50,596 nucleotides of DNA, taken from Escherichia phage vB-EcoS-XT34. The stretch lies in the sequence record OR767160. One strand, 5' to 3'. A program made the translations under genes and the position numbers. The notes beneath the pieces were generated by a model that saw only the letters and a list, made by a program, of their open reading frames with translations, searched no databases and was not told the DNA's origin. Shown piece by piece: positions 2,742 through 48,008 of this stretch (the first letter of the stretch is position 1; each line of letters opens with the position of its first letter).

Positions 2742-3118
2742 AAGTACGCTTACTTAACCCGTCAATCTACTCCCTCAAACCAAACCAGAAACTTAGCGAT
2801 TGGAGCAAGGTCGCCGATCCGGAAAGTTACCCCGTAGTGGTTGAGACTGATGATATCAGCCATGAACCTAAAATCATTCAGGATGCATTCAAGGATCGCG
2901 TTCTTGTCGGTGCTAGTGAGCTGGATCGTGTTTTTAACATGGGTGGAGGTTACAAACGAAGAAGCGACACGCAGCTCGGCTGGTGGAACAATCAGAATAA
3001 CTCAAGTCGCCCACATATCCCTAGTAACTCCTGGGAGCCAGTCGGCCCGTTCGACTACTGGAACAAATTAAAGGCATCACGCGAAGTTGGCGAAACTGTA
3101 GGTAAGGGTTACTTATGA
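2738..3118 (+). CDS. hypothetical protein
   Basis: 126-aa ORF, start overlaps the upstream stop. Confidence 0.45.
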   Translation: MKVRLLNPSIYSLKPNQKLSDWSKVADPESYPVVVETDDISHEPKIIQDAFKDRVLVGASELDRVFNMGGGYKRRSDTQLGWWNNQNNSSRPHIPSNSWEPVGPFDYWNKLKASREVGETVGKGYL

Positions 3119-6951: not shown

Positions 6952-7190
6952 TGTTTGGATTAACCGATCCGCAGATGAACGCAGTAAAGGCCAAGGCCAA
7001 GCAATTAAACGCAGCGTATGCCACCCTTAGCAAGAAAGATCGCAAAGATGATAAGATGGTTGCCTCAATTATTACCAAGCACCATGAGGCCGTAGCGACC
7101 ATTATATCGCGCTCTCGTTTTATTTGGATTGCTGGATACATAGAGGGTAGATGCGGAAGGCGGGATGATGGAGAATGTATTTATGATTGA
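6951..7190 (+). CDS. hypothetical protein
   Basis: 79-aa ORF; its 3-prime end overlaps the HNH gene start, so boundaries are uncertain. Confidence 0.3.
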   Translation: MFGLTDPQMNAVKAKAKQLNAAYATLSKKDRKDDKMVASIITKHHEAVATIISRSRFIWIAGYIEGRCGRRDDGECIYD

Positions 7191-7683
7191 TATAAATGAT
7201 TACCTTTCATATGATGAGTCAAGCGGCGACCTAATATGGGCATTTAAATTAAGCAGAAAGGTAGTTGTCGGATCGGTAGCTGGATGCAAGTGCAAAAGAG
7301 ATGGTTATATAAAGGTTAGGTTTGAAAATAGGCTTTACTTGGCTCATAGGATTATATGGGAGTCTGTAATGGGGAGAATACCAGAAGGGATGCAGATTGA
7401 TCATATAAACCACAATAGGTCAGATAACAGGGTGGAAAATTTAAGGCTTGTTACGCATATCGAAAACGGCATGAATCAATCAAGGAGCGTTAGAAACAAA
7501 AGCGGTGTAACTGGAGTGTCATGGCAGAGCAGGGATAAGAAGTGGAAGGCGGTAATTTCAAAGGATAGAAAGGCAATCAGTCTTGGGTATTTCAATAACT
7601 TCGATGATGCGGTGGCTGCTAGGCTTAGTGCTGAAATTGAATTTGGTTACCATGTAAACCATGGAAGAAAATTAAAGGTGTAA
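7165..7683 (+). CDS. HNH homing endonuclease with AP2-like DNA-binding domain (copy 1)
   Basis: HRIIWE..IDHINHNRSDNRVENLRLVT motif plus C-terminal AARLSAEIEFGYHVNHG; paralogous to five other copies. Confidence 0.75.
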   Translation: MMENVFMIDINDYLSYDESSGDLIWAFKLSRKVVVGSVAGCKCKRDGYIKVRFENRLYLAHRIIWESVMGRIPEGMQIDHINHNRSDNRVENLRLVTHIENGMNQSRSVRNKSGVTGVSWQSRDKKWKAVISKDRKAISLGYFNNFDDAVAARLSAEIEFGYHVNHGRKLKV

Positions 7684-10794: not shown

Positions 10795-11244
10795 ATGATT
10801 AAGGTTAAGAAAAGTAAATTCTACCCAGGTGATATAGCTGGAACCATTGATGCTGATGGTTATGTGAGGATAACGATAGGTGGAGTGTCTATTCTTGCTC
10901 ATAGGTTTGCGTGGGAATTCGATAATGGAGACATACCAGAGGGAATGCAGATAGACCACAAAAATCACGTAAGGAACGATAATAGGAGGGAGAATCTAAG
11001 GGTTGTTACCCATAAGGATAACGGTAGGAACACGAAAAGATCTGTCAGAAATAGGAGTGGATGTGTAGGTGTTTATTGGTATGAGTCAAGGTCTAAGTGG
11101 TGGGCTTTCATTGGAAACTCAGGAAAGGGAGAGAGGAAATCACTAGGCTACTTCTCTGATTGGTTTGACGCGGTTTGCGCCAGGAAATCAGCCGAGCTCA
11201 GGCTTGGATACCATGAAAACCATGGTAAGATAGACATCAAATAA
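10795..11244 (+). CDS. HNH homing endonuclease with AP2-like domain (copy 2)
   Basis: HRFAWEF..IDHKNHVRNDNRRENLRVVT and WFDAVCARKSAELRLGYHENHG; inserted between terminase and portal genes. Confidence 0.75.
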   Translation: MIKVKKSKFYPGDIAGTIDADGYVRITIGGVSILAHRFAWEFDNGDIPEGMQIDHKNHVRNDNRRENLRVVTHKDNGRNTKRSVRNRSGCVGVYWYESRSKWWAFIGNSGKGERKSLGYFSDWFDAVCARKSAELRLGYHENHGKIDIK

Positions 11245-23993: not shown

Positions 23994-24479
23994 ATGATTA
24001 ACTGGCATGATTACTTTAAGTACGATAACGGGGTTCTGATTAACATAAAGAGCAGGAATGGGGCTAAGTATATGCAGCAAGCGGGGAGGAAAAATAAATC
24101 ATCAGGCTACATTGAGGTGATGGTTAATTATAAGCGGTATCAGGCGCATAGGACTGTGTGGGAAATGAATCATGGTAAAATTCCAGAAGGAATGGAAATA
24201 GATCACATAAATGGGATTCGTGATGACAACAGAATTGATAACCTGAGGCTTGTCACAAGCAGAACAAACGACACAAACAGGGCTAAAAGCAAGGCCAACA
24301 CAAGCGGTGTCGTTGGTGTTTGCTGGGATAAAAGAAAAGGTTTATGGTTGGTTAGGATTTACGACAACAAGAAACCAGTTTTCGTTGGTTACTTTCGTGA
24401 ATGGTTTGATGCTGTATGCGCGAGAAAGTCATCGGAAAGGACTTATAATTATCATGAGAATCACGGGAGAGCGAAATGA
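23994..24479 (+). CDS. HNH homing endonuclease with AP2-like domain (copy 3)
   Basis: HRTVWEM..IDHINGIRDDNRIDNLRLVT and WFDAVCARKSSERTYNYHENHG; inserted between the L-like and K-like tail genes. Confidence 0.75.
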   Translation: MINWHDYFKYDNGVLINIKSRNGAKYMQQAGRKNKSSGYIEVMVNYKRYQAHRTVWEMNHGKIPEGMEIDHINGIRDDNRIDNLRLVTSRTNDTNRAKSKANTSGVVGVCWDKRKGLWLVRIYDNKKPVFVGYFREWFDAVCARKSSERTYNYHENHGRAK

Positions 24480-37179: not shown

Positions 37180-39174
37180 ATGTTGCCTATCGAGAAGCTA
37201 GTTGCAAACTTCGATAAAGAAAGAATTAAACAGATTCAGAAGGATTACCAGTTTGGAGAGATAACCCCTTACGAATTCCAGTGTGTTACATTTGATGCAA
37301 TCGGAAAGGCCATTGGGAAGTATGAAAGCCCATTCATAGCAGACCTGTCGGTTTCTGCTGGTAAAACTATCATTCTCGCCATGATCGGTAAGAGAATGGA
37401 ACAGTTAGGGCTTCCTTATATGGTGCTATCTCGCCAGTCTGAGATTGTGAGCCAGGACAGCGAAGAGCTTCGCAATTTTGGCATTCGTAATAGCGTCTAT
37501 TGCGCTGGCCTTAACGTTAAATCAGTTTATTACCCAACCATAGTTGCTAGCGAAGGAACTGCGGCTAACGGCTTATTTAAGGGGCTTGGTGACTATGTTC
37601 CTGCCGTTATAGCTATAGATGAGTGCCATATGGTCGATCACATGGATATCGTTGAAGCCGAGGAGAACGAAGAAACATTTGAGCAAATGAGCACAAAGAA
37701 AGGCGAGATGGTTTTTAAGGATGGCGTAAACACAGGATTGCTTGGCACTGGTCGTGCGCAGTACACGCTAATCATTACTGAAATGAAACGACGTTGTCGT
37801 GAGAAGTATGGTCGCGAGCTTCGTATCTTTGGGCTAACTGGCAGCCCGTATCGCAACAATGATCACATAGTGGTTAGCAATCCAAATATCCGTGGATTCT
37901 GGCGCAAAACAGTGATCCAGGTCCCAACCAATTACCTTGTTGATTTGGGATTCGTTGTTCCAACTGTTTACGGAGAGGTTGGTGATTTGGGTTACGACCT
38001 TGCGGAGTTTGCTCCGGATGGCAGCGATGGTGTGAAAGACTTCAGCAAGAAAGAGATGGATGCAATGGCTGCAAAGATTCACGAAAACCAATCAATGACT
38101 CAAAAGATTATGGGTTTTCTTGTAAAAATTCTAGAGACTCGTAACGCCGCATTGGTCACCTGCGCCGGAAAACTCCATTGTGATGAGGCCGCTGCGGCAT
38201 TGCCGGATGGATACCCTTACGCCATTATCACCGATTCTACCGGAGAGAGGAAGCGCAGAGAGATTCTTGCAGATTGCCAGACTGGAAAGTACAAGATTAT
38301 CTTTCAGATTGGATGTCTAACCACGGGCGTAAACCAACCGCTGTGGGATACTAGCGTCATACTACGCAAGATTGGCAGTCTAACCTTAATGATTCAGCTT
38401 CTTGGTCGTGGCATGCGAAAACTAAAAAAGGCGCACATAGATGCTGGGTTCAAGAAGGAGGACCACTTGGTATTAGACTTTGCCGGAGCGCTTGATGACA
38501 TGGCAGAGCTTTACTTTGACCCAATAATTGAGGAGATTCAGGCTGAGAAGTTTAAATCCTCAAGAAAAGGTGGTGATGAGGCTCGCCAGTGTCCGAAATG
38601 TGGATATGAGAATTCGCCATTTGCTAGACGCTGTAGCAATAAGATTAATGGCGTTAGATGCGATCACTTTTTCCAGTTCACAACATGTGATGATATTACC
38701 GACCAACAAACAAAGGCGGTAATCAAGAAAGGTTGTGGAACTAAAAATGACATAGCAGCAAAAGTTTGTCGCGAATGCGGGGAAATGCTTAAAGACCCAA
38801 ACGCTAACCTGACTGGAAAGATGTATCGTCGCGGAGACTATTTGCGTGTTTATGACTTCCAGGTTGGATTGAGCAAAAATCAAACTGGCATTGTAGTTAA
38901 GTACAATATCATGGCCCACAACGGAGAAAGATTTAACGCTTGGGAGTTCTTTAATCCAGAATCTGACCATCGAGTTTGTAGTGTGCTATGGAAAAACTTT
39001 TGCCTTTCTCATATTGAGAATCGCACAGAGGCAGCACGAATTGGCAAACTTCGTAACGCAAAAATGATTATGATGAACGCAGATAAATTCCGAGCTCCTG
39101 TGCAGGTGACGCATCGTCGAAATGCAAAAGGTAAGGATATAATTGCCGTGAAAAATTTTGGAGAGTTAAAATGA
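37180..39174 (+). CDS. superfamily 2 DNA helicase
   Basis: 664 aa, Walker A SAGKT, DECH box (IAIDECHMV), C-terminal Cys cluster. Confidence 0.75.
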   Translation: MLPIEKLVANFDKERIKQIQKDYQFGEITPYEFQCVTFDAIGKAIGKYESPFIADLSVSAGKTIILAMIGKRMEQLGLPYMVLSRQSEIVSQDSEELRNFGIRNSVYCAGLNVKSVYYPTIVASEGTAANGLFKGLGDYVPAVIAIDECHMVDHMDIVEAEENEETFEQMSTKKGEMVFKDGVNTGLLGTGRAQYTLIITEMKRRCREKYGRELRIFGLTGSPYRNNDHIVVSNPNIRGFWRKTVIQVPTNYLVDLGFVVPTVYGEVGDLGYDLAEFAPDGSDGVKDFSKKEMDAMAAKIHENQSMTQKIMGFLVKILETRNAALVTCAGKLHCDEAAAALPDGYPYAIITDSTGERKRREILADCQTGKYKIIFQIGCLTTGVNQPLWDTSVILRKIGSLTLMIQLLGRGMRKLKKAHIDAGFKKEDHLVLDFAGALDDMAELYFDPIIEEIQAEKFKSSRKGGDEARQCPKCGYENSPFARRCSNKINGVRCDHFFQFTTCDDITDQQTKAVIKKGCGTKNDIAAKVCRECGEMLKDPNANLTGKMYRRGDYLRVYDFQVGLSKNQTGIVVKYNIMAHNGERFNAWEFFNPESDHRVCSVLWKNFCLSHIENRTEAARIGKLRNAKMIMMNADKFRAPVQVTHRRNAKGKDIIAVKNFGELK

Positions 39175-39653
39175 ATTGGAATGATGTTTTCGAGTACGTA
39201 GAAGGAAAGATTTTCTGGAAGGATAGTGGGAAAGGTAGGAAGTCTGGTGCTGAATTTGGTTGCATATGCAATACGTGGGGTTATGTTATTGGCACCCTTA
39301 GAGGAAGGACTGTTAGGGCCAATCGTTTAATATGGGAGATGCATAATGGGCCAATACCAAACGGAATGCAAATTGACCACATCAATCACATTAGGCATGA
39401 TAATAGAATTGAGAACTTGAGGCTTGTTAGTAATCAGGAAAACAGCAAAAACAACTCAATGCGAAAGAATAATACTTCTGGAGTTACAGGTGTTTGCTGG
39501 AATAAACAAAAAGGAAAGTGGATGGCTAAAATAAAAGTTGATTACAAAACCATAAATCTTGGTTTGTATTCAGACATTGAAAAGGCCGTGGAAGCAAGAA
39601 AGCAAGCTGAGGAATTATACGGTTTTCATGAAAATCACGGGGTTAATTTATGA
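39171..39653 (+). CDS. HNH homing endonuclease with AP2-like domain (copy 4)
   Basis: NRLIWEM..IDHINHIRHDNRIENLRLVS and EARKQAEELYGFHENHG. Confidence 0.75.
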   Translation: MNWNDVFEYVEGKIFWKDSGKGRKSGAEFGCICNTWGYVIGTLRGRTVRANRLIWEMHNGPIPNGMQIDHINHIRHDNRIENLRLVSNQENSKNNSMRKNNTSGVTGVCWNKQKGKWMAKIKVDYKTINLGLYSDIEKAVEARKQAEELYGFHENHGVNL

Positions 39654-40139: not shown

Positions 40140-40643
40140 ATGAAATGGAGAAATCGAATACAATATAAAGATGGTTCACTTTACTGGCTTGAGGCGAAAG
40201 ATAAAAGCAAATCATTCAATCATCGACTTTCTGGAAAGAAAATAGGAACGGTTATGAAGGATGGTTACATGAGATTCAGGTTTAATGATAAAGCATACTC
40301 ATGCAGCAGGGTGACGTGGGAGTACTTTAATGGAGAAATTCCTATCGGAATGGAGATTGATCATATAAACCATATAAGAGATGATAACAGAATTGAAAAT
40401 TTAAGATTGGTATCAAGATCTGATAATCAAAAAAATCTAAGTATATCAAAAAACAACAAATCAGGAGTAACTGGCGTCACATACCATAAACCTTCTGGTT
40501 TATGGTCCGCCAGAATAAACTCTGGAGGAAGAAGGTTTGAGCTTGGCTACTACAAAACCATAGAAGAAGCAAGGTTGGCAAGAATTGATGCTCAAAATGA
40601 ATTTGGTTTTCATGATAATCATGGAAAGAAAATAAAAAATTAA
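40140..40643 (+). CDS. HNH homing endonuclease with AP2-like domain (copy 5)
   Basis: SRVTWEY..IDHINHIRDDNRIENLRLVS and EARLARIDAQNEFGFHDNHG. Confidence 0.75.
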   Translation: MKWRNRIQYKDGSLYWLEAKDKSKSFNHRLSGKKIGTVMKDGYMRFRFNDKAYSCSRVTWEYFNGEIPIGMEIDHINHIRDDNRIENLRLVSRSDNQKNLSISKNNKSGVTGVTYHKPSGLWSARINSGGRRFELGYYKTIEEARLARIDAQNEFGFHDNHGKKIKN

Positions 40644-42713: not shown

Positions 42714-43856
42714 ATGGCTATTCAGAAGATTAGTGACGAACAATTCATTGCTGAGCGCGAAGCTGGTAAAACACTCCGCCAGATTGCCCAGGAATACGGG
42801 ATGAACATTCGAACTGTTGAGCAGCGCTCAAGCCGCCTGGCAAAGCGCGGTGAGTTCCACGGGAATAAACACGTAAGCGTACACGTGCCAGAGGGCTTTC
42901 AGGTTAAAGGCACGTCAACCATGATTCGCGCTGACGGTTCCGAGGTCGTGCGCTGGGTTAAGACCGATCAGGACAAGGAGAAATTAGCCGCCATGATGGA
43001 TGCTGCTATTGAAGCATTCTGTGACGAACTCCCGCGCGCAGCTCCTCAGCCTATTCTTGGCGAGCCTCACTATGATGAGAATCTCCTGGCCCTGTATCCA
43101 GTTTTCGATCTCCACATCGGAGCAATGGCCCACAAGCATGAATGCGGCGAGAATTACAGCACCGACATCTCTGAGAAAGTTCTCAAGAACTTCTTTGATT
43201 ACTCGGTTGGTGTATCTCCTAAAGCAAAGAAAGCCGTATTGCTAATCGGCGGTGACTTCCTTCACTCAGACGGCCTGGACGCTGTAACGCCTGCAAGCGG
43301 TCACGTACTGGATCAGGATAGTCGATACGCCAAGCTAGTTCACGTTGCAATCCGTTCCGTACGCCGCGCGGTGGCGCTAATGCTGGATAAGCACGAAGAG
43401 GTCGAAATCCAGATCATTGAAGGTAACCATGACCAGGCTGGCATGATTTGGTTGCGTGCAGCAATGGCGGCATACTTTGAAGATGAGGCGCGCGTAACGG
43501 TTGATACGTCTCCTATGATTCTTCACCGTACAAAGTGGGGCAAAACATTGCTTGGATACACTCATGGTCACACCATGAAGAAAGCTGATACTCGACTGGC
43601 GGCAATGGCGACTGACTTCCGCGAAGAGTTCGGTACGAGCAAGTATATTTACACGCATAGTGGCCATTGGCACCATCAGACGATCACGGAAGGAACTTTG
43701 GGGATTGATGAGGTTCACGGTCAGCTTGGCGCGAAAGATGCATATGCGGCGCGCGGCGGTTGGCGCTCATATCGCCAGGCGGCGGTAATTGTCTACTCCA
43801 AGGAGTTCGGCGAAGTCGGTCGCTTCGTTTACCGTCCTGAAATGAGCGACATCTGA
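42714..43856 (+). CDS. HTH-containing calcineurin-like metallophosphoesterase
   Basis: N-terminal HTH-like LRQIAQEYGMNIRTVEQR; phosphoesterase motifs DLHIG, GGDFLHSD, GNHDQ; a duplicate start at 42487 lies in the pre-gap copy. Confidence 0.55.
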   Translation: MAIQKISDEQFIAEREAGKTLRQIAQEYGMNIRTVEQRSSRLAKRGEFHGNKHVSVHVPEGFQVKGTSTMIRADGSEVVRWVKTDQDKEKLAAMMDAAIEAFCDELPRAAPQPILGEPHYDENLLALYPVFDLHIGAMAHKHECGENYSTDISEKVLKNFFDYSVGVSPKAKKAVLLIGGDFLHSDGLDAVTPASGHVLDQDSRYAKLVHVAIRSVRRAVALMLDKHEEVEIQIIEGNHDQAGMIWLRAAMAAYFEDEARVTVDTSPMILHRTKWGKTLLGYTHGHTMKKADTRLAAMATDFREEFGTSKYIYTHSGHWHHQTITEGTLGIDEVHGQLGAKDAYAARGGWRSYRQAAVIVYSKEFGEVGRFVYRPEMSDI

Positions 43857-43900
43857 TAGCACGAATTGCCTAACACTATAGCGCCGGAAGGCGCTATATT
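43857..43900 (+). promoter_or_regulatory. box element variant (TAGCACGAATTGCCTAA) plus -10-like TATATT
   Basis: TGA-TAG double stop; spacing about 23 nt. Confidence 0.4.
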
Positions 43901-43927
43901 CATATCTCAATCACAGAGGATTCAATC

Positions 43928-44101
43928 ATGGTTAAATTATTTTGCGTTAAGAACACATCTAAAACCCTGCCTTTCACTGTTAACAATCCGTACATCGCCG
44001 AGTACCAGGGAGACGGGAGCTACAAGATTTACGGCGACGATATGACGTGGATTTTTGCGCCAATTGATGGTGCTCTGGTTGAATTTATTATCGCTGACTA
44101 G
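43928..44101 (+). CDS. small hypothetical protein (57 aa)
   Basis: hand-translated ORF with AGAGGA RBS, followed by a terminator; not in the ORF track. Confidence 0.3.
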   Translation: MVKLFCVKNTSKTLPFTVNNPYIAEYQGDGSYKIYGDDMTWIFAPIDGALVEFIIAD

Positions 44102-44127
44102 CTCAGCAAAAACATAACGTTACGAAC

Positions 44128-44153
44128 GGGGAGCCTTTAGGCCCCTTTTTTTG
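44128..44153 (+). terminator. rho-independent terminator
   Basis: gggagcc-ttta-ggcccc followed by TTTTTTTT. Confidence 0.55.
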
Positions 44154-44220
44154 TGCTTCTTTTTAATACCGTGCTAATGTATTATGTTTTTTACTAACTG
44201 AGATATTGACAATCACATAA

Positions 44221-44448
44221 ATGGTGGATCACATGAGGGAAGTAATTAACGCTGCTACAGCATCAACTGGCGGAGCTGCAGTGACTGGAGCAGCGACTGG
44301 TCAAATGACCATAGCAATAATCAGCCTTATCGCTCTGATCATTTTTGGAGCTTGGGGGGCTTACTGGAAGTTTAAGGATAGCCAGGCCATTAGGCGCGCT
44401 CTTGAATCAGGAGACTTAAAAACAGCAATCAAGATAAGGAGTAAGTAA
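44221..44448 (+). CDS. holin (candidate pinholin)
   Basis: 75 aa, Gly/Ala-rich hydrophobic segments and charged C-terminus, directly upstream of the endolysin gene. Confidence 0.55.
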   Translation: MVDHMREVINAATASTGGAAVTGAATGQMTIAIISLIALIIFGAWGAYWKFKDSQAIRRALESGDLKTAIKIRSK

Positions 44449-44949
44449 ATGAAGCAGAAGCTTGTAATTAGTGCGGCGACGGCTGCAGCAATATACATTG
44501 CAGCACCGATCATTGAGCTTGTAGAAGGCGTGGAGAACAAGCCATACATGGACATTGCTGGAGTGCCTACGGTCTGCGCTGGAGTTACTGGCTCCGATGT
44601 GATATGGGGCAAGAGCTACAGTAACAGGGAGTGCCGGAACTTGCTGGAGAAGCACATTCAGATTCATGGCAAGCATGTGCAGAATGCAGTCACCTACCCT
44701 ATATCCCCAAAGACAAGGGCGGCGCTAATCAGTTTTAGCTACAACGTTGGCGGATACGCCATGAGGAAGTCTACATCTGTAAGGCTAATTAACCAGGGTA
44801 AGGTTGAGCAGGGTTGTAAGGCTCTAGGTATGTGGACAAAAGCAAGAGTAAATGGGAGGCTTGTTACAGTAAAGGGTTTAGTAAACCGAAGGAATGAAGA
44901 GATTAAGCTATGCATTGAGGGTGAGATGGAAATGAAAAGGGGCAATTAA
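44449..44949 (+). CDS. endolysin, lysozyme-like with N-terminal signal-anchor-release (SAR)-type domain
   Basis: 166 aa; weakly hydrophobic Ala/Gly-rich N-terminus followed by E..D..T catalytic spacing (IELVEGVENKPYMDIAGVPTVC). Confidence 0.7.
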   Translation: MKQKLVISAATAAAIYIAAPIIELVEGVENKPYMDIAGVPTVCAGVTGSDVIWGKSYSNRECRNLLEKHIQIHGKHVQNAVTYPISPKTRAALISFSYNVGGYAMRKSTSVRLINQGKVEQGCKALGMWTKARVNGRLVTVKGLVNRRNEEIKLCIEGEMEMKRGN

Positions 44950-45476
44950 GCCCCGTGATTTTCGTGAAAGCCTAGCTCCATCTCTGCGGCTTTTCTAGCT
45001 AAGACTGCATCATCGAATGAGTCTCCGTAGTAAAGCCGCTTATTCTTGCCATTAATTTTTATCTGAGAGAACCATTTACCCCTTGCTGAGTCCCAGCACA
45101 CACCAACGACTCCGGATGTATTTAAAGAAGACATTGGCATGTTCATTTCCTGATCAGACCTTGATGCCAGTCTTAGGTTTTCAATTCTATTATCATCCTT
45201 AATGTGGTTTATATGATCGATCTCTATACCATCAGGTATCTGGCCTTTGTGCATTTCCCATATAATCCTATGCACCTTCCTGTACCTGTTGTTAAATCTA
45301 ACCAATAGGTATCCATGTTTATCTGGAGTTCCAACCATTTTTCCGGCATTTCTTGAGTTGTACTGATTGCTCATGTCATCACGACGCTTCCTCCATAAAT
45401 TATTTCCGTCATAATGAAAGTATTTTGACCAGTTCATGTATACTATCCTCTCTAGTTTCATTTCATCAACAATCAT
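44946..45476 (-). CDS. HNH homing endonuclease with AP2-like domain (copy 6)
   Basis: HRIIWEM..IDHINHIKDDNRIENLRLAS and FDDAVLARKAAEMELGFHENHG; on the opposite strand, between endolysin and spanin genes. Confidence 0.75.
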   Translation of the reverse strand: MIVDEMKLERIVYMNWSKYFHYDGNNLWRKRRDDMSNQYNSRNAGKMVGTPDKHGYLLVRFNNRYRKVHRIIWEMHKGQIPDGIEIDHINHIKDDNRIENLRLASRSDQEMNMPMSSLNTSGVVGVCWDSARGKWFSQIKINGKNKRLYYGDSFDDAVLARKAAEMELGFHENHGA

Positions 45477-45493
45477 ATCAAAGGTGGTAATTT

Positions 45494-45883
45494 ATGTTTT
45501 TGCAAAAAATGCTATTATGCTCTGTAATTCTGCTTTCAGGTTGTTCGGCGACATCTGCGCTGACTGGTTTAATTGGCAGCAAGCCAGAAATCAGTGCGCA
45601 GGCTGGGGCTGAGAACGTGAAGCAAACGGTAGGTGTTACAGGAAAGGTGGATAAGTCAAACGACAACGACACCACTATCAAAGATTCAAAGGTAGGAAAG
45701 GTTGATACGTCAAACGGGAAATCTGTCAGCACATCAAGCATCAAGGCTGACACTATCGTTGCTGATAAGATTGAAATAAGGAATGATGAAGGAGGTGGAA
45801 GGATTGCGTTTGGACTTGCTTTAATTCTAATTAGCCTATTGCTTTTCTCATTTACAATATGGACTACTTTTCGCAAAAAATAA
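45494..45883 (+). CDS. unimolecular spanin (u-spanin) candidate
   Basis: N-terminal lipoprotein signal with lipobox LLSGC-S and a single C-terminal transmembrane helix, as in the phage T1 u-spanin. Confidence 0.55.
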   Translation: MFLQKMLLCSVILLSGCSATSALTGLIGSKPEISAQAGAENVKQTVGVTGKVDKSNDNDTTIKDSKVGKVDTSNGKSVSTSSIKADTIVADKIEIRNDEGGGRIAFGLALILISLLLFSFTIWTTFRKK

Positions 45884-45886
45884 AAG

Positions 45887-45910
45887 GAGCCGAAAGGCTC
45901 CCTTTTTTTA
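45887..45910 (+). terminator. rho-independent terminator
   Basis: ggagcc-gaaa-ggctcc followed by CTTTTTTT; same hairpin as at 15088. Confidence 0.7.
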
Positions 45911-46046
45911 CCCAAATCTTTGCACCAGTAGCAACAATTCACCTTCATTATTGCATAGAGTATGCTCATCACGTCGTCCGGCACGCATTGATGAATTTAG
46001 CATTGACAGCAGCGCTTGATTAAGCCCGTCCTCACTAATCCCATTC

Positions 46047-46421
46047 TCAGAACTGCATCTGATTATCGCGTCGATTACGACCTGGCTCTCCAAATAACTC
46101 TCCATCGCTCATCTTCTCTATGTTCATCATCTCCCATGTGTAGCGATCGTTCTCACCGCCATAGCACTTGAAATGAAATTCAAATGGCCTTTTTTGCGCG
46201 CCTTTGGACCAGTACCAGTTGTTCACGCCGTCAAGGTATCCTTCTCCCATGCATCTTGCAATAAACTCCTTTGATGATGACGATGCGAAATAGCGAGGCG
46301 TAACTCCAGCAGCCTTAGCCAGTCGCTCACACTCCCTGTGCTTGTATATGAAAACCGCCAGGTGCTGACGGTTGAATTTTTCATAGCCTTCGCAAAAACG
46401 GTACAGATCCAGAAGAAACAT
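46047..46421 (-). CDS. hypothetical protein
   Basis: 124-aa ORF co-oriented with the leftward block; overlaps the alternative 45908-46105 ORF, which I rank lower. Confidence 0.4.
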   Translation of the reverse strand: MFLLDLYRFCEGYEKFNRQHLAVFIYKHRECERLAKAAGVTPRYFASSSSKEFIARCMGEGYLDGVNNWYWSKGAQKRPFEFHFKCYGGENDRYTWEMMNIEKMSDGELFGEPGRNRRDNQMQF

Positions 46422-46424
46422 AAT

Positions 46425-48008
46425 TTACCCCAGCAGTCGCGGATTAATGTAAATCTTATCACCAATCAGGCACGTATAGTTCTTCTCATCCAGCATAGGG
46501 ATCAGGTGATCTTTGATGCGAGTCATTACGCCACTTTGCCCTTCAAAGGGCTTAACCTTACGAGCCGCTTCATATAGTGATCGGACACCTACAACGCCTT
46601 TCCCGTTCTTACCTTGCTTGATCAGAATGTCGATCAGCTTATTCATCTCCGCATGGTCGCCAGCATGACCAGCAGCGTTTGCAGATGACAGATAAGTCTT
46701 ACTCAGTTCCTGGAACATAATTACCGCTTCCTGCATTGTGTCAAGCTCAATCTCTCTGGACTTCTGCGGACTCCCGCCATTGGGATTAAACCAGTTACGC
46801 ACAGTGTGAAGAACAGCCGCGATCCTGATAGCCTGCTTATCGAACTTACCCAGCGCGCCGCGAAGCATTGTGTGTGAATACTTCCCGCCGTCCGCAAGGT
46901 GAGGTTCCATATCCTGACGCGCACGGTTGAGATATTTCATCGCCGATGTGCTCACTGTCAGATTGACTTTGTGTTCGCTCATGATCTCATGGACCAGACG
47001 GAAGTAGTCCGCCTTGAGTCCGCCATCAATCGGCTCGTATGTTGATTCGCCTTTTTCGTCAACGAATACACGCTCGCCAAGGAATGACTTCTCACGCACA
47101 AGCAAGAAACGTTCTGACACACCGATACCACGCGCACCAGCATTCATGATCGCGTTGATTGTTTCATCCTGTGCAATTACAGAGATGCAACCCATCGCAA
47201 TAAAGCTCATGTTATTGTCTGCGTTTGCACGCGCGATAGATACGTTTCCAGCATCCCATGCTTTCAGCACAAGCTCGCTGTTCGTTTTCTTTGAGCCGTC
47301 ACCATAGGTCATGCCTAAAAGTGAGTTCACGCTCGTTGCTTCATCCGAGATCACAGAGAAATTACCCTGGCGGTTGTTGATTCGTGCAAGACCTTCCGGC
47401 GTGGTGTCGGATACGGGGAATACGATGTCACAAAGGCGTTCCAGTTTTTCTTCCAGTTCTTCTTTTTCCTCAAACAGCGCCGCCATGTCAGATGGTGATT
47501 TCTCCTGCTTCATCTCCTTGGATAGAGCGGAAAGCTTAGCCATAATCTTCTTGCGGTCGCGCTTTCGGATCTCGTTGAGTCGTTCAGTCTCTGCGATCAT
47601 CGGGGCCAGCGAAAGTGAGTTAATGGCTGATTTACCTGTCGATGGTGGCTGACTGGTTACGACGTACAGCGCGGTAGGCTGTTGTGTTCCGTGATACTCA
47701 ACCGTAAATCGGCCCAGCATGGCGGCTGATATGCATCCGAGGAAATGCATGTAAGCGGACGACTCGGGGAACTGAACTGAACGAGCGGCATTGCTTGACA
47801 GCTTACCAACGACATCATAATCGTTACCAAGTGAGATAACCGGATATTTGTCACCGCCTGAGTCAATTTCTGTTGGGGCTTTCCAGAACGACTGGCTCTG
47901 CCTGTACCCATTCGCATTAATGGCAACGCGCAAAGGCGGCAGGTTGTCGGCAGCGGCTACAGCCATTACCTGATCGATTGACAATTTATCTTCGTTGAAA
48001 TCAAACAT
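46425..48008 (-). CDS. large P-loop-like protein of unknown function (candidate NTPase)
   Basis: 527 aa, deviant Walker A PPSTGKS and Walker B-like VISDE; N- and C-terminal segments shared with the 187-aa protein at 1138-1701. Confidence 0.6.
   Translation of the reverse strand: MFDFNEDKLSIDQVMAVAAADNLPPLRVAINANGYRQSQSFWKAPTEIDSGGDKYPVISLGNDYDVVGKLSSNAARSVQFPESSAYMHFLGCISAAMLGRFTVEYHGTQQPTALYVVTSQPPSTGKSAINSLSLAPMIAETERLNEIRKRDRKKIMAKLSALSKEMKQEKSPSDMAALFEEKEELEEKLERLCDIVFPVSDTTPEGLARINNRQGNFSVISDEATSVNSLLGMTYGDGSKKTNSELVLKAWDAGNVSIARANADNNMSFIAMGCISVIAQDETINAIMNAGARGIGVSERFLLVREKSFLGERVFVDEKGESTYEPIDGGLKADYFRLVHEIMSEHKVNLTVSTSAMKYLNRARQDMEPHLADGGKYSHTMLRGALGKFDKQAIRIAAVLHTVRNWFNPNGGSPQKSREIELDTMQEAVIMFQELSKTYLSSANAAGHAGDHAEMNKLIDILIKQGKNGKGVVGVRSLYEAARKVKPFEGQSGVMTRIKDHLIPMLDEKNYTCLIGDKIYINPRLLG

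Follow-up and report, generated by a model that had tools for sequence, protein, structure and literature searches.

In a 2026 survey of Drexlerviridae, a core of exonuclease, holin, endolysin and spanin genes was found in 508 of 522 genomes, with the holin, endolysin and spanin genes contiguous and stable (PMC13164509). HNH genes adjoin the SH3 gene in 25 of the 522, lying between it and the exonuclease gene, upstream of the holin; the survey places HNH genes only upstream of the cassette and describes none between endolysin and spanin (PMC13164509). Here we describe the lysis locus of Escherichia phage vB-EcoS-XT34 (sequence record OR767160), whose 50,596 nucleotides (nt) form the window to which all positions refer unless a contig is named. 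From sequence comparison, positions 44221–45883 very probably hold a Drexlerviridae lysis cassette of the T1 type, with the overlap of the endolysin and spanin genes invaded by an antisense, free-standing gene for an HNH-AP2 homing endonuclease. The lysis module itself is the published T1 architecture, textbook for the T1-like family, and offers nothing new; what is new is the site taken by the antisense HNH gene, itself a selfish element of a known kind.

The nearest phages in a copy of the INPHARED collection (50,697 phage records, the XT34 genome not among them) are Drexlerviridae of the genus Nouzillyvirus and its allies (ESCO41, 50EP, GaoY1-9D, P817 and p111), at 86–91% DNA identity and none of them reaching 80% query coverage. 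A literature search on the phage name XT34 found no paper naming the phage. Gene order over 42714–48008 follows T1 genes 16 to 9 with complete synteny, running from a DNA-repair exonuclease through a small DUF7244 protein, holin, endolysin and spanin to a bidirectional terminator and two convergent minus-strand genes. All four open reading frames (ORFs) that a preliminary description had assigned to 44221–45883 are present where it put them.

The inserted block and its HNH gene

In HNH-free relatives (p111, GaoY1-9D, ETEP102 and BEK1-1) the endolysin has 161 amino acids (aa), ends in ...EEIKLCLSGLQR* and overlaps the spanin gene by 25 nt, the spanin ATG lying inside the last endolysin codons. 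Alignment with p111, GaoY1-9D and BEK1-1 delimits in XT34 a cassette-specific block of 620 nt (44913–45532) that replaces 36 nt, corresponding to spanin codons 2–13. Homology to the HNH-free alleles ends after ...AAGYTATG (44912; AAG CTATG in the window) and restarts at the LSGC codons (~45533). The HNH gene thus occupies a place where the two genes normally overlap by 25 nt, and it comes with replacement ends for both, points that the preliminary description had left out.

On the endolysin side, the block encodes a new C-terminal tail of 11 codons plus stop (IEGEMEMKRGN*, plus strand, 44913–44949), where HNH-free alleles end LSGLQR*. Endolysins of 166 aa are found on all occupied contigs, and because these ORFs are intact throughout, a C-terminus longer by five residues is presumably tolerated. 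On the spanin side, the block brings a new start and signal peptide, MFLQKMLLCSVIL replacing MFKWIAALVMCMA. The former spanin Shine–Dalgarno (SD) sequence and ATG survive inside the endolysin gene as a two-codon fossil (ATG CAT TGA, plus strand, 44910–44918), which lies in the +2 frame of the endolysin, at the position of the spanin ATG in unoccupied alleles.

Two further elements of the block flank the HNH gene. At its 3′ end, both convergent stop codons fall in the loop of a hairpin with a 5-base-pair G+C stem (GGGGC-AATTAA-GCCCC, 44939–44954). The stem is kept in all alleles. On either strand the hairpin resembles a terminator, the T-run being better on the minus (HNH) strand; the predicted RNA folds have energies of −20.6 kcal/mol (z −4.2) on the plus strand and −12.5 kcal/mol (z −2.5) on the minus strand. 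At its 5′ end, a divergent spacer of 56 nt (45438–45493), conserved across alleles, holds the HNH SD (GAGAGGA, minus strand) and the spanin SD (AAAGGTGG). Both SDs are spanned by a 62-nt block, AATCATATCAAAGGTGGTRATTTATGTTTTTGCAAAAAATGCTATTATGCTCTGTAATT, which contains the spanin SD, the start codon and the first 12 spanin codons. It is identical except for one A/G position in every aligned contig carrying HNH types A, C and D, and contigs with type B match it over the aligned stretch shown; the conserved spanin-start block is located at 45477–45532 of the window, and the same block is present in contigs L004–L025. Candidate sources of this constraint are an HNH promoter or operator on the opposite strand, or the requirements of spanin translation initiation.

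Immediately beyond the block, every LSGCSA codon of the window differs from p111 at the third position. We considered immunity of the occupied allele through synonymous recoding of the lipobox and rejected it, as lipobox codons mix between occupied and unoccupied types (L009 against BEK1-1, L015 and L021). Because they mix freely, we place the resumption of homology at codon 14.

The inserted gene itself (minus strand, 44946–45437) encodes a free-standing HNH-AP2 protein of the homing-endonuclease type. It matches HNH_3 (6e-21, over profile positions 1–45 of 46, with the motif EIDHINHIKDDNRIENL) and phrog_99 (4e-59), and has an AP2 match (2.9e-05, 24.7 bits) that falls under Pfam's 33.3-bit cutoff. 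The preliminary description had placed an HNH gene on the opposite strand between endolysin and spanin and had it run over the endolysin stop. Location and strand stand, as does the overlap: the HNH and endolysin ranges share 4 nt (44946–44949), with the HNH stop codon at 44946–44948 on the minus strand and the endolysin stop codon at 44947–44949 on the plus strand. The start, however, moves from 45476, which gives an ORF of 176 aa, to what is by allele comparison almost certainly the true one, the ATG at 45437, for a protein of 163 aa. An SD (GAGAGGA or AGGAG) lies 5′ of this ATG in every HNH allele, a 5-nt indel breaks the frame of the upstream extension (45438–45476) in other alleles, and each of the ten alleles extracted at the site, that of the window among them, encodes 163 aa from this ATG.

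Four HNH allele types occur at the site, all of 163 aa, the fourth being only 53% identical. Between types, the proportion of nonsynonymous differences (pN) is 0.08–0.32 while synonymous sites are saturated (pS 0.63–0.83), which indicates that the HNH protein is under purifying selection. In a single allele, at 3001–3492 of contig L009, the Asp that precedes the catalytic His is replaced by Gly (EIGHINH, where all others have EIDHINH), and from this substitution the allele may be an inactivated copy.

The XT34 genome carries five further HNH-AP2 paralogues, all on the plus strand (7165–7683, 10795–11244, 23994–24479, 39171–39653 and 40140–40643). They are 42–50% identical to the HNH protein of the lysis cassette, and all have the EIDH/N..NRxENL motif and a GFHENHG C-terminus; with six HNH-AP2 genes in total, homing-endonuclease genes make up ~5% of the genome. 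We had considered the HNH termini MNWS.YF.YDG and FHENHGA as site-specific features and rejected them, since they are family-wide and common to the five paralogues elsewhere in the genome.

Distribution, mosaic flanks and decay of the block

The block is present at the identical site in ~20 metagenomic contigs (L004–L011, L014 and L017–L025), on different phage backbones, and the site is HNH-free in p111, GaoY1-9D, ETEP102, BEK1-1 and T1. Among the 50,697 INPHARED records, none has an HNH gene at the endolysin/spanin site. The closest HNH proteins in a large protein collection are 95%, 73% and 69% identical, and the closest homologues are all encoded antisense between a 166-aa endolysin and a spanin of 128 or 129 aa. 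The occupied-type signal peptide (MFLQKMLLCSVI...) is found in 33 of the best 120 spanin clusters, and looking up spanins of this MFLQK type yielded more occupied contigs, including those with the fourth HNH type. In every context examined, the MFLQK-type signal peptide accompanies the HNH gene or a remnant of it.

The flanks of the block are mosaic. Contigs L014 and L009 are 98–100% identical across the endolysin, HNH gene and spacer and 96% identical over the signal-peptide codons, against 53% in the rest of the spanin, where L014 is 98% identical to p111 and L009 is 89% identical to BEK1-1, a member of a different subfamily. The window is 96–98% identical to p111 as far as the holin gene extends, ~80% in the endolysin and 87–95% over most of the spanin; to type-A occupied contigs it is 97–100% identical over most of the endolysin, the HNH gene and the signal peptide, and 83–95% at the 3′ end of the endolysin. 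From these mosaic flanks we conclude that a block of ~1.05 kb has moved between backbones. Such a pattern is consistent with co-conversion in intronless homing, which produces tracts of this form (PMC2988022). The tract is asymmetric (~450–500 nt on the left, ~60 nt on the right), and our guess is that it points to a target in the endolysin gene or in the overlap.

Decay of the block is visible in contigs L015 and L016, which combine a 166-aa endolysin and an MFLQK-type spanin with a spacer of only 126 nt (L015 2375–2500; L016 520–645). This spacer is made of the last ~88 nt of the HNH gene joined to the HNH 5′ untranslated region, the product of a ~413-nt internal deletion. Because it consists of the two ends of the HNH gene, we regard these contigs as deletion derivatives and not as empty sites, and they show that the endonuclease can be lost while the un-overlapped layout remains.

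The same two contigs bear on the possibility that the un-overlapped layout (166-aa endolysin, spacer and MFLQK-type spanin) is the older, native one, and that the HNH gene landed in an existing spacer without bringing gene ends. Free-standing endonucleases usually land in intergenic spacers, and the T1 genes abut (43093–43581 and 43581–43982) without a 25-nt overlap. Spanin signal peptides are moreover hypervariable family-wide, with at least eight types among the best 120 spanin clusters, so that a distinct one need not derive from the HNH cassette. Yet the sole HNH-free examples of the layout are L015 and L016, with their spacer from both HNH gene ends, and the old spanin SD and ATG are still kept as a fossil at 44910–44918. 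The occupied-type sequence at the 5′ end of the spanin, signal peptide included, has 0 matches in IMG/VR viral contigs, 0 in GTDB genomes and a single match in JGI metagenomes (L014), which is HNH-occupied too; by these counts, no empty site with occupied-type flanks was found. On balance we consider an older un-overlapped layout improbable.

A second alternative, which we judge more improbable still, is that the HNH gene has been domesticated for the lysis programme, for example through an antisense transcript or a hairpin that tunes endolysin and spanin expression or the timing of lysis. The purifying selection on the HNH protein would fit this, although the same is expected of an actively homing endonuclease. 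The gene is always antisense, its stop shares a hairpin loop with the endolysin stop, and the 62-nt block is conserved across HNH alleles whose synonymous sites are saturated, all of which would suit a regulatory role. Against such a role, some close relatives have the gene and others lack it, with lysis genes that are otherwise the same, HNH-deleted contigs retain intact lysis genes, and the five paralogues sit at unrelated sites in the genome.

We therefore favor insertion of a homing element into the overlap, and its course can be sketched as follows. An HNH-AP2 homing endonuclease gene would have entered the 25-nt endolysin/spanin overlap in antisense orientation, as part of a 620-nt block that would keep both genes working by including a tail and stop for the endolysin and an SD, ATG and signal-peptide segment for the spanin. 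The hairpin in the block would end the HNH transcript. By gene conversion the block would then pass from one related phage to another, in most cases taking the neighboring endolysin gene along, and it can decay by internal deletion, leaving the un-overlapped arrangement in place.

More tentatively, the HNH cassette may be a composite mobile unit for invading the highly constrained, dual-coding endolysin/spanin overlap that HNH-free T1-like phages have, with portable replacement ends (tail plus terminator hairpin for the endolysin, SD plus lipoprotein signal peptide for the spanin), and in it the 62-nt block is functional at the nucleotide level, for instance as an HNH promoter or operator or as an immunity determinant. 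Un-overlapping would then be irreversible, because the new architecture persists after endonuclease decay in L015 and L016. We regard this extension as possible and hold it with far less confidence than the insertion itself.

Lysis proteins and their surroundings

The spanin gene (plus strand, 45494–45883), the last of the lysis cassette as in T1, encodes a unimolecular spanin (u-spanin) of the T1 gp11 family with 129 aa (44% identity to T1 gp11, E 3e-28; phrog_1804 'Rz-like spanin', 4e-46). Its signal peptide and lipobox occupy 45494–45544 (MFLQKMLLCSVILLSGC), with LSGC at residues 14–17 and the Cys17 codon at 45542–45544. By the Lol-avoidance rule, outer-membrane sorting calls for a residue other than Asp at +2 after the lipidated Cys; here it is Ser18, and the spanin has no periplasmic Cys. 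The C-terminal transmembrane domain (TMD, ~45803–45859, residues ~104–122, Kyte–Doolittle peak 2.64) is followed by FRKK. A lipobox, a single C-terminal membrane helix and T1-type u-spanin architecture had all been proposed for this protein in the preliminary description, and all three find support in the homology to T1. U-spanins are defined by an N-terminal lipoylation signal together with a TMD at the C-terminus (Kongari et al., PMC6139136), and the lipobox of XT34 is that of wild-type gp11, LSGC, which has been functionally tested in gp11 (PMC6139136). Complementation of the lambda Rz/Rz1 lysis defect has been shown for T1 gp11 only (PMC6139136).

Every occupied contig that covers the whole gene has an intact spanin ORF behind a strong SD, and there is almost no variation in the periplasmic residues, which gives indirect support to the XT34 spanin being functional. 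An AlphaFold2 model built from a 29-sequence alignment has low confidence (predicted local distance difference test (pLDDT) 58.6; predicted template-modelling score 0.24) and yields no usable periplasmic fold. It places helices at residues 2–15, 20–27 (pLDDT <50) and 101–128 (pLDDT 76–90), with 16–100 otherwise unstructured at low pLDDT. The segment that encodes the C-terminal TMD (45781–45883) behaves as a separate mosaic module: contigs that are 98–100% identical to the window through the HNH gene and the 5′ half of the spanin fall to 50–65% there, and p111 stands at 93–94%.

The endolysin (plus strand, 44449–44949, 166 aa) is of the signal-anchor-release (SAR) type and belongs to the GH24, T4-lysozyme-like muramidases (PF00959, 2e-33; 43% identity to T1 gp12, itself a predicted SAR endolysin, PMC11447400). 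Its N-terminus reads MKQK followed by an 18-residue hydrophobic stretch, LVISAATAAAIYIAAPII (residues 5–22), with 7 Ala among the 18 residues and a Kyte–Doolittle value of 1.85, and the catalytic triad is E26-x8-D35-x5-T41. The closest solved structures are RrrD (4zpu, 3.4e-26) and the phage 21 SAR endolysin (3hde, 1.8e-25; 3hde/3hdf ~1e-25), and the alignment to R21 and RrrD begins at residue 11, inside the hydrophobic segment. Because the N-terminal segment contains no Cys, regulation is predicted to be of the R21 type and not by disulfide caging as in P1 Lyz. Taken together, the protein is probably an R21-type SAR endolysin, the SAR type having been suggested beforehand from its weakly hydrophobic, Ala/Gly-rich N-terminus, and by homology it would be exported, tethered and released on depolarization.

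The holin gene precedes it directly, its TAA (44446–44448) standing immediately before the endolysin ATG at 44449. The preliminary description gave this gene 75 aa (44221–44448, plus strand) and likened the product to a pinholin. The product is a T1-family holin (phrog_2877 'holin', 4e-37; 58% identity to T1 gp13), but its start is better placed at the conserved ATG 44233 (44233–44448), which has an SD-like GGTGGA upstream and gives the 71 aa that T1 gp13 also has. In 5 of the 8 close relatives compared, AAG or another non-ATG codon stands in place of the ATG at 44221; p111, L021 and T1 have ATG there. Holin orthologues on related contigs carry PF27028 (Phage_T1_holin); the local Pfam copy had no holin or spanin model that matched, and NCBIfam gave nothing above cutoff for holin, HNH or spanin.

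For T1 gp13-family holins, class II pinholin status has been proposed (PMC11447400, PMC6139136, PMC13164509), and the T1 and TLS holins are credited with two putative transmembrane segments (PMC11447400); the cassettes that encode gp11-family members also hold a pinholin and a SAR endolysin (PMC6139136). The family is so classed in three papers because of its SAR endolysin partner and the two putative segments, and in the literature searched we found no experiment on any T1-family holin. For the XT34 holin the label pinholin is accordingly a proposal by analogy. The protein could instead be a canonical large-hole holin with one TMD, the SAR domain of the endolysin making it a mere timing device. 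By hydropathy, only residues 30–49 of the 75-aa ORF pass a threshold usual for TMDs, a 'single transmembrane domain' is what the T1 record annotates, and a BLASTP comparison with the phage 21 S68 pinholin gave no similarity (E 3.1), the T1 holin family (PF27028) being separate from the phage 21 pinholin family. However, the three papers cited class the T1-family holin as a pinholin, and the segment at residues 9–29, rich in Ala, Gly and Thr with a mean Kyte–Doolittle value of ~0.5, resembles the weakly hydrophobic first TMD of a pinholin. We consider a canonical holin unlikely, though clearly less remote than either alternative for the insertion.

Judged by homology to T1 and phage 21, lysis would take four steps. 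The small gp13-family holin would depolarize the inner membrane. Depolarization would release the R21-type SAR endolysin, which would have been exported by Sec and kept inactive by its N-terminal signal anchor. The released endolysin would degrade the peptidoglycan, and loss of the peptidoglycan would free the u-spanin to disrupt the outer membrane, in which the Cys17 lipid is predicted to anchor it, with the C-terminal helix as its anchor in the inner membrane. Transcripts of the spanin gene presumably come from the lysis promoter, reading through the hairpin and over the antisense gene.

Several points weigh against the overall reading. The endonuclease activity, target and homing of the HNH protein are read from sequence comparison. 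Generalized mosaic recombination, rampant in these phages, could alone give the flanking breakpoints. The hairpin at 44939–44954 is terminator-like on the plus strand as well, and read-through into the spanin gene is assumed; no promoter for HNH or spanin rises above chance, a scan having returned 5 sites where 5.9 are expected and none in the HNH–spanin spacer. The low-confidence spanin model (pLDDT 58.6) is without beta structure. For the holin, the first hydrophobic segment is too weak for a TMD call by hydropathy, and the T1 GenBank record states a 'single transmembrane domain'.

Manual inspection brought up a minus-strand TTGCAA-17-TTTGAT as a weak candidate only, and we claim no promoter from it. 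A perfect TTGACA hexamer lies at 44208–44213, 20 nt 5′ of the holin start, and is kept in every close relative aligned, though T1 lacks it; a −10 element to go with it, at a spacing that could work, was not found.

Directly 5′ of the lysis genes, a DUF7244 (SH3-like) protein of 57 aa is encoded on the plus strand (43928–44101; PF23896, 5e-29), in the same position as its T1 counterpart ST14. The DUF7244 family is a standalone SH3 domain, proposed as an accessory component of the lysis module and found in 188 of 522 Drexlerviridae (PMC13164509). On the other side, a bidirectional intrinsic terminator (45882–45905), called by terminator scan and RNA fold, separates the lysis genes from the convergent minus-strand genes at 46047–48008; T1 gene 11 has an annotated terminator at the same position. 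L015 and L016 carry a different HNH gene, of 153 aa, downstream of the spanin instead, and in some related contigs two or three further HNH genes lie just 3′ of the spanin or 5′ of the DUF7244 gene (L023 1550–3039; L022 359–850). The neighborhood of the lysis module looks like a hotspot for HNH elements.

Comparison with known systems

The XT34 locus offers a natural case in which a selfish endonuclease gene enters the overlap of two lysis genes and kills neither, the rescue consisting of a new C-terminus for the endolysin and, for the spanin, of a signal peptide and a ribosome-binding site that are both new. The case shows that the signal peptide of a u-spanin can be exchanged. HNH-free sites, occupied sites with four diverged alleles and the remnant left by decay provide a ready comparative series for the homing cycle and co-conversion in T1-like phages. 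For annotation, the antisense gene displaces the spanin by 545 nt from the endolysin, and a pipeline built to expect the lysis genes side by side could overlook the spanin.

Compared with the T1 cassette (genes 13, 12 and 11), XT34 has the same order and the same neighbors, namely exonuclease, DUF7244 protein, holin, endolysin, spanin, terminator and convergent genes, with 58% (gp13), 43% (gp12) and 44% (gp11) identity and an identical LSGC lipobox. T1 differs in that its three genes stand end to end, endolysin and spanin having no gene between them. T1 also has an HNH gene, ST15, which is upstream of the cassette and on the strand of the lysis genes, whereas that of XT34 is antisense and between endolysin and spanin. 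Other HNH genes near the Drexlerviridae lysis module (PMC13164509) belong to the same protein family and have often been repositioned between T1-like genomes.

With R21 and RrrD (3hde, 3hdf and 4zpu), the XT34 endolysin has in common the GH24 fold, the E-D-T triad and a Cys-free, weakly hydrophobic N-terminal segment. It differs from both at the C-terminus, where the HNH cassette has given rise to a tail of 11 residues. With E ~1e-25 the similarity is moderate, and identity to R21 and RrrD is therefore modest.

The free-standing seg and mob endonucleases of T-even phages (PMC2988022, PMC2790892) are the closest parallel for the inserted gene. They too are present or absent between conserved genes with co-inherited flanks, swap alleles at one site, have an associated terminator hairpin and leave degenerate copies. 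The T4 examples, however, lie in true intergenic regions, whereas the XT34 HNH gene lies in the coding overlap of two lysis genes and brings replacement ends for both. Unlike the T4 examples, it belongs to the HNH_3 and AP2 family that is common in T1-, T5- and T7-like phages, and activity as a homing endonuclease is predicted for it.

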